Below are positions 24,715 to 24,855 of a DNA stretch of 64,000 nt, in pieces. Origin of the DNA: Escherichia coli (GTDB lineage: Bacteria; Pseudomonadota; Gammaproteobacteria; Enterobacterales; Enterobacteriaceae); NCBI RefSeq assembly GCF_003334315.1, contig NZ_QOWR01000005.1, one strand, 5' to 3'. Both the position numbers and the translations under genes were made by a program. Position 1 is the stretch's first letter, and each line of letters starts with the position of its first letter. The notes under the pieces are model-generated. The model saw only the letters and a program-made list of their open reading frames with translations. It ran no database searches and was not told the origin of the DNA.

Positions 24715-24728
24715 TTGATATATATCAA
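24715..24728 (+). promoter_or_regulatory. Consensus FNR site (TTGAT-N4-ATCAA) of a class II promoter for pdeF
   Basis: Perfect TTGATatatATCAA; a -10 hexamer TAGAAT at 24750-24755 places the site centre at about -41.5. Confidence 0.6.
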
Positions 24729-24855
24729 TTGGTACTTTCATATGACACTTAGAATCAATGCTCTCTATAGTGATGAATAATCATCATTCGAAGTCAGGTG
24801 GGATGCCTGTCTGAATACACCTCCTTCAGGATGTGGGGGATTCTGCTGAGCATCT

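Follow-up and report, generated by a model that had tools for sequence, protein, structure and literature searches.

A perfect FNR box upstream of Escherichia coli pdeF (yfgF) is very probably the operator of an FNR-dependent promoter of class II

The perfect FNR palindrome located between yfgG and pdeF (yfgF) in the 64-kb window, that is, the whole stretch of E. coli DNA analyzed here, is with high confidence the operator of a class II FNR-dependent pdeF promoter. This site is already known at nucleotide resolution and its detection represents a rediscovery from sequence. The link between oxygen and c-di-GMP dates from a publication of 2010, with ChIP-seq confirmation in 2013, so no new biology is added in this respect. 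The comparative data reported in this study, which cover 16 orthologous promoters and are in agreement in all 16, provide independent support for the published promoter. In addition, a strongly conserved and so far uncharacterised pdeF leader is brought to attention.

The gene order at the locus is guaA (+), yfgI (−), yfgH (−), yfgG (−, 24313–24504), pdeF (+) and ppx (−). PdeF is a c-di-GMP phosphodiesterase that combines MASE1, degenerate GGDEF and EAL domains, and Pfam assigns PF05231 and PF00563 to its homologs. The FNR box lies 141 bp 5′ of the pdeF ATG, inside the 351-bp spacer between the divergent yfgG and pdeF genes, in which the G+C content from 24550 to 24750 is 20–28%. Positions 24300–25100 matched positions 2628694–2629494 of MG1655, in reverse complement, with 100% identity and, therefore, any K-12 coordinate (NC_000913.3) is obtained here as 2653794 minus the window coordinate. 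The 801-bp segment around the box was matched in 5424 of 5426 complete E. coli genomes, and 5404 of the same 5426 carried the 71-bp core promoter with an identity of at least 95%. In the strains inspected, the SNPs were located in the spacer and just 3′ of the −10 hexamer, and none of them fell in the box.

The box, TTGATATATATCAA, matched the FNR consensus at 10 of 10 positions, as had been claimed in a previous sequence-only reading of this DNA, which had also placed the TAGAAT hexamer correctly. It was the only perfect TTGAT-N4-ATCAA in the window when both strands were considered. The sequence of the box together with the −10 region is gtTTGATATATATCAAttggtactttcatatgacactTAGAATcaatgctc. 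The gap between the 14-mer and TAGAAT is 21 bp. With regard to the distances, the elements named in that reading hold and its figures need correction: the centres of the palindrome and of the hexamer (24752.5) are separated by 31 bp instead of the 29 bp given, and 28.5 bp is obtained when measuring only as far as the hexamer's first base. Likewise, the class II geometry proposed there stands, while the 41.5 bp assigned to a start at 24762 is in fact 40.5 bp, and 41.5 bp is only reached at 24763. A box at −41.5 thus places the start at 24763 and a start at 24762 would put the box at −40.5; class II geometry fits both. The three hexamers that could act as −35 box with spacers of 16–18 bp (ATTGGT, AATTGG, and CAATTG) share only 0–1 of 6 bases with TTGACA. 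In this regard, a sigma-70 consensus scan did not call the TAGAAT promoter with its FNR box, which is to be expected where a class II promoter is activator-dependent. The coordinates of all features, together with their information content, are provided in Table 1.

Table 1. Features of the yfgG-pdeF intergenic region and information content of the promoter elements (ungapped alignment of 12 non-redundant sequences anchored on the FNR box).
Feature	Position in window	Strand	Basis or remark	Bits per position
FNR box	24715–24728	none	Perfect TTGAT-N4-ATCAA palindrome, centre 24721.5	
FNR half-sites				1.84
30 bp upstream of box				0.78
21-bp spacer				0.90
Would-be −35 position	24726–24733	+	Spacer 16–18 bp; overlaps promoter-proximal FNR half-site	
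−10 hexamer TAGAAT, pdeF promoter	24750–24755	+	Sequence; named −10 in PMC3718329; kept in 16/16 orthologs	1.83
Downstream of −10				0.43
Predicted transcription start	24762–24763	+	From −10 position and published −41.5 (PMC3718329)	
pdeF 5′ UTR, ~93 nt	24763–24855	+	Predicted start to ATG; ortholog alignments	
pdeF (yfgF) CDS	24856–27099	+	747 aa; ORF list, RefSeq annotation	
AT-rich tract 5′ of FNR box	24580–24714	none	20–28% GC; contains conserved block 24679–24702	
yfgG promoter	−35 TTGACC 24577–24572; −10 CTTAAT 24554–24549; start ~24541	−	PMC3946193, PMC4447067	
Putative alternative pdeF promoter	ATGACA 24742–24747; 18-bp spacer; TATAGT 24766–24771	+	Sigma-70 consensus scan	

The yfgF promoter was previously described as class II and FNR-dependent, with an FNR box TTGAT--ATCAA at −41.5 and TAGAAT as −10 (Lacey et al., 2013, PMC3718329). 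Locus and nucleotides coincide with those studied here and nothing differs. A passage of that paper citing Lacey, Partridge and Green (2010, Microbiology 156:2873) states that yfgF expression is activated by FNR and maximal under anaerobiosis, and the counterpart in Salmonella (Enteritidis) was given as TTGAC--ATCAA with TACAAT (PMC3718329). FNR also appears as an activator of yfgF under anaerobiosis in RegulonDB-type curation (PMC4207228). The anaerobic FNR-dependent expression invoked in the sequence-only reading is on record, with the conditions discussed below. Moreover, an FNR peak at yfgF/yfgG was obtained both by ChIP-chip and by ChIP-seq, in the latter case with three peak callers (Myers et al., 2013, PMC3688515), the callers listed for this peak being MOSAiCS, NCIS, CisGenome, and CMARRT (Table S5, PMC3688515). 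The predicted site under the peak is the box itself, at 2627088 in old coordinates, 1978 below the new ones (Table S6, PMC3688515), so that the comparison with published ChIP data proposed in the earlier reading turned out positive. Its PatSer score, 16.08, is the seventh highest given to a predicted site with ChIP binding in part 1 of Table S6 (PMC3688515). No Fis, H-NS, or IHF enrichment overlapped the yfgF FNR site, whose estimated target is yfgF (Myers et al., 2013, PMC3688515), and the peak was absent from an earlier FNR ChIP-chip study of 2007 (Table S5, PMC3688515). A literature search pairing pdeF with FNR gave no match, and an entry for yfgF was not found in the supplement of a Shigella FNR RNA-seq study.

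Further support of our own comes from the comparison of 16 orthologous upstream regions, belonging to five Escherichia lineages, E. fergusonii, four Citrobacter, Salmonella enterica, Enterobacter soli, and four further enterobacterial contigs. A contig scan with the PdeF N-terminus yielded seven loci, mostly from Escherichia, and the wider sampling was reached through homologous proteins and the contigs encoding them, PdeF protein identity within the set going down to about 63%. All 16 promoters carried, at 136–149 bp from the ATG, an FNR box agreeing with the consensus at 9 or all 10 of its bases, followed at exactly 21 bp after the 14-mer by TA[A/G/C]AAT. The only half-site variants were TTGAC and GTCAA, both of them common in genuine FNR sites, as in Table S6 (Myers et al., 2013, PMC3688515). 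Half-sites and hexamer far exceeded the spacer and the flanks in information content (Table 1). Two elements kept at a fixed distance constitute, as judged from these alignments, a clean phylogenetic footprint such as a class II promoter predicts. The class II FNR-activated pdeF promoter proposed from sequence is in this way matched by the published description (PMC3718329), the ChIP peak (PMC3688515), and the architecture of the 16 orthologs.

It must be considered whether the palindrome instead serves CRP or YeiL, the other E. coli proteins of the CRP/FNR family in question, or arose by chance in AT-rich DNA and has no function, which we regard as extremely improbable. The region around the site has 20–30% GC, and AT-rich palindromes arise easily there. 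In dinucleotide-preserving shuffles of the window there was a mean of 0.07 perfect matches, and at least one match appeared in 7 of 100 shuffles; therefore, the perfect match alone is just mildly surprising, and it is the position and the conservation of the box which carry weight. In addition, several perfect-consensus FNR sites elsewhere in the E. coli genome are not bound in vivo, according to Table S6 (Myers et al., 2013, PMC3688515), so ChIP and conservation, rather than the consensus match, must carry the argument. Both of them speak against this alternative: TTGATATATATCAA is occupied by FNR in vivo by two ChIP methods, the loss of ChIP signal in an fnr deletion was already part of the filtering of Myers et al. 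(PMC3688515), and conservation covers the half-sites and the distance from them to the −10, in contrast to the diverged flanks. As regards CRP, the half-sites are TTGA/TCAA, unlike the GTGA/TCAC core of CRP sites. Given the established specificities of CRP and FNR, the TTGA core of the pdeF site indicates specificity for FNR.

A second alternative concerns the core promoter. Under it, pdeF would be transcribed mainly from an FNR-independent sigma-70 promoter starting at about 24778, and the FNR box, then at about −56.5, would be bound with little effect on transcription. The sigma-70 scan detected the hexamers ATGACA and TATAGT with an 18-bp spacer, which match the consensus at 10 of 12 positions, and these same hexamers were listed, beneath a SELEX peak of the RpoD holoenzyme, as the predicted constitutive promoter of yfgF (Shimada, 2014, PMC3946193); furthermore, the absence of an fnr-dependent change of yfgF in exponential glucose medium (Myers et al., 2013, PMC3688515) would fit such a promoter. 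However, 1.9 matches of the same quality are expected by chance in the region scanned, the assignment by SELEX was predicted from the sequence beneath a broad peak and is not a mapped start, and neither hexamer is conserved beyond Escherichia, in contrast to the TANAAT at class II distance, which is kept in 16 of 16. Besides, −56.5 is a non-activating position, and FNR-dependent anaerobic yfgF expression is stated in PMC3718329. Taken together, these data make this alternative quite unlikely. The ATGACA-18-TATAGT element may be a minor E. coli-specific promoter, which does not explain the conserved architecture, and it could coexist with the TAGAAT promoter.

The other matter to be weighed is which gene is controlled. 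The site is symmetric and lies in an intergenic region common to both genes, so it might act on the divergent yfgG, or on both, rather than on pdeF alone. A divergent yfgG was found by tblastn in all 10 testable loci of other genera, and the five Escherichia loci were syntenic by alignment (the Salmonella contig ends too near pdeF to tell); in the wild type, yfgG was about 2.2-fold higher anaerobically (0.45; Myers et al., 2013, Table S12, PMC3688515). Nevertheless, the yfgG start, 2627275 in v2 coordinates (PMC4447067), corresponds to about 24541 in the window, and the box is thus located some 180 bp 5′ of it, at about −180, where neither class I nor class II activators sit, and far from the yfgG hexamers TTGACC and CTTAAT. 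This distance leaves pdeF as the target at activating distance. On reading the minus strand, no acceptable −10 was found where the mirror image of the pdeF arrangement would place it relative to the box. Myers et al. (2013, PMC3688515) assigned the peak to yfgF, and yfgG is missing from their list of fnr-dependent operons. For these reasons, control of yfgG is highly improbable, and pdeF is retained as the target of the class II operator. The idea that the box accompanies pdeF even where yfgG is lacking was rejected, as the gene calls had missed yfgG in some loci and tblastn detects it in each of the 10 other-genus loci with enough flanking sequence.

Some observations can be added on the yfgG side of the spacer. 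The alignment showed conservation of the yfgG hexamers and of the reported start near 24541 in Escherichia and C. amalonaticus, and a region of sigma-S RNA polymerase ChIP-seq was reported over approximately 24417–24716. In many E. coli genomes, RefSeq/PGAP calls inside this spacer a 50-amino-acid hypothetical protein, WP_000017552.1 (24522–24674, +), whose ORF has no annotation in the MG1655 record and overlaps the yfgG promoter hexamers. Its matches in other genera reached just 41–55% identity by tblastn; accordingly, the conservation there may reflect regulatory DNA and not coding sequence.

Regarding the mechanism, in the absence of oxygen dimeric [4Fe-4S] FNR would bind the palindrome, overlapping the place of a would-be −35 box, and from about −41.5 it would recruit and activate sigma-70 RNA polymerase. 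The polymerase would then use TAGAAT and start near 24763, yielding a transcript with a leader of about 93 nt followed by pdeF, and the c-di-GMP phosphodiesterase would be made anaerobically. The contacts between the FNR activating regions and the polymerase, as well as the exact start nucleotide, are those that we infer from the general class II model. In this way, the site ties FNR oxygen sensing to c-di-GMP turnover and, with it, to the motility, the surface properties, and the tolerance to peroxide of enterobacteria living anaerobically.

This arrangement is close to that of model class II FNR promoters such as nirB, narG, dmsA, and the synthetic FF-41.5, which present an FNR dimer at about −41.5/−40.5, the position predicted at pdeF, and likewise a poor or absent −35 overlapped by the dimer, a good −10, and TTGAT-N4-ATCAA half-sites. 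Comparable sites for nirB, narG, and yfiD are found in Table S6 (Myers et al., 2013, PMC3688515). In yfiD, FNR at −40.5 is accompanied by a second upstream site, whereas no second FNR site was recognised in the pdeF promoter, and among the 16 ortholog promoters the additional FNR-like matches were only weaker ones (8 of 10), present in some species. Unlike the model promoters, that of pdeF has no recognisable NarL/NarP heptamers and its output is unusually condition-dependent, being silent in exponential glucose and enhanced without H-NS/StpA. Class II CRP promoters (e.g., galP1) show the same architecture, with a dimer of the CRP/FNR family at −41.5 replacing the −35 contact, and differ in their GTGA core and cAMP signal, as opposed to the TTGA core and oxygen signal of pdeF.

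FNR binding is a necessary context for pdeF expression and is not sufficient for it. Anaerobic yfgF expression reportedly reaches its maximum in stationary-phase cells and at 28°C. Besides growth phase and temperature, BasR reportedly gates pdeF output further, as H-NS/StpA apparently do too. In exponential phase in anaerobic glucose minimal medium, yfgF has an FNR peak without an fnr-dependent change in expression (Myers et al., 2013, Table S9, PMC3688515). The FNR ChIP-chip average at yfgF was 0.35 in the wild type, a weak value, versus 1.68 in an hns/stpA mutant (Table S7, PMC3688515), and O2-dependent yfgF expression (0.23, +O2/−O2) was observed in the hns/stpA mutant only (Table S11, PMC3688515). 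With respect to BasR, it binds the yfgF promoter in gel shift assays at an undefined site, and a basSR mutant shows a 2.3-fold derepression (2025, PMC12419081). It must be noted, as a reminder, that the occupancy of a perfect site does not amount to regulation under every condition.

The AT-rich tract 5′ of the box is, we infer, a candidate substrate for the effect of H-NS/StpA on FNR occupancy, and an HNS mark has been placed on the yfgG-pdeF spacer (Shimada, 2014, PMC3946193). Within the tract, an AT-rich block, ATAAACGTAATAATTCATTAATCA (24679–24702, approximately −84 to −61), is kept in Escherichia, Citrobacter, and three further relatives and is not conserved in Salmonella or Enterobacter soli. 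The block sits where FNR occupancy responds to H-NS/StpA (Myers et al., 2013, Table S7, PMC3688515).

The pdeF leader contains two near-invariant blocks in 13 enterobacterial orthologs, GTCAGGTGGGATGCCTGTCTG (24793–24813) and TTCTGCTGAGCATCTATGA (24841–24859), and diverges in the rest. Two GGA motifs are present in all 13, one at 24801–24803, in the loop of a predicted CAGG/CCTG hairpin, and the other at 24829–24831, in the loop of a predicted CCTCC/GGGGG hairpin. The two loop GGA motifs resemble the architecture of CsrA binding sites. The leader had no match in Rfam at E ≤ 1, its single-sequence folding was no better than that of shuffles (z = −0.32), and RNAalifold gave 12 pairs with almost no covariation. 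An entry for yfgF/pdeF was not found in the CsrA CLIP and transcriptomics supplements of PMC5694010 and PMC6347204, an absence which is uninformative since those cultures were presumably aerobic.

It is conceivable, though doubtful, that the FNR box is the first of several conserved layers of pdeF control, the others being the AT-rich block and the CsrA-like leader; such a layered control was not found in the searchable literature. If this were true, and CsrA or another RNA-binding factor gated translation or stability of the transcript made through FNR, it would explain why a perfect site occupied by FNR is silent in exponential glucose. The same gating would explain why expression is reported to peak in anaerobic cells that grow slowly and are in stationary phase.

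Apart from these blocks, the leader has a perfect 6-bp inverted repeat, TGATGA-ATAA-TCATCA, at 24771–24786 (approximately +9 to +24), predicted as a 5′-proximal hairpin. Escherichia, several Citrobacter, and Salmonella retain the GATGA...TCATC arms, and more distant orthologs do not have them. This repeat could act either in the mRNA, as a 5′ stem-loop, or in the DNA, as an operator. When the AT-rich block and the inverted repeat were compared by eye with the Fur, IHF, ArcA, and NarL consensus sequences, no convincing in-register match was seen.

Two E. coli strains were found with insertion sequences in this intergenic region. In ES6, an IS1B separates the FNR box from the −10, having inserted at the equivalent of 24731–24739 in the window (L020, 2516–3340) with a 9-bp target duplication, GGAACTTTC, and the box is moved by the length of the IS1, about 0.8 kb, from the core promoter. 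In SCZE5, an IS1A is located farther upstream, at about 24570–24580, in the yfgG promoter region.

Other FNR-like sites were also observed in the window. Two of them match 9 of 10 consensus positions, TTGATGAATACCAA (6317–6330) and TTGATGTTTTTCAA (61349–61362). Finally, TTGACTTTAGTCAA (32827–32840), in the upp/purM spacer, and TTGATCTCGCTCAC (19563–19576), in the guaB/xseA spacer, are published FNR ChIP-bound sites (Myers et al., 2013, Table S6, PMC3688515).
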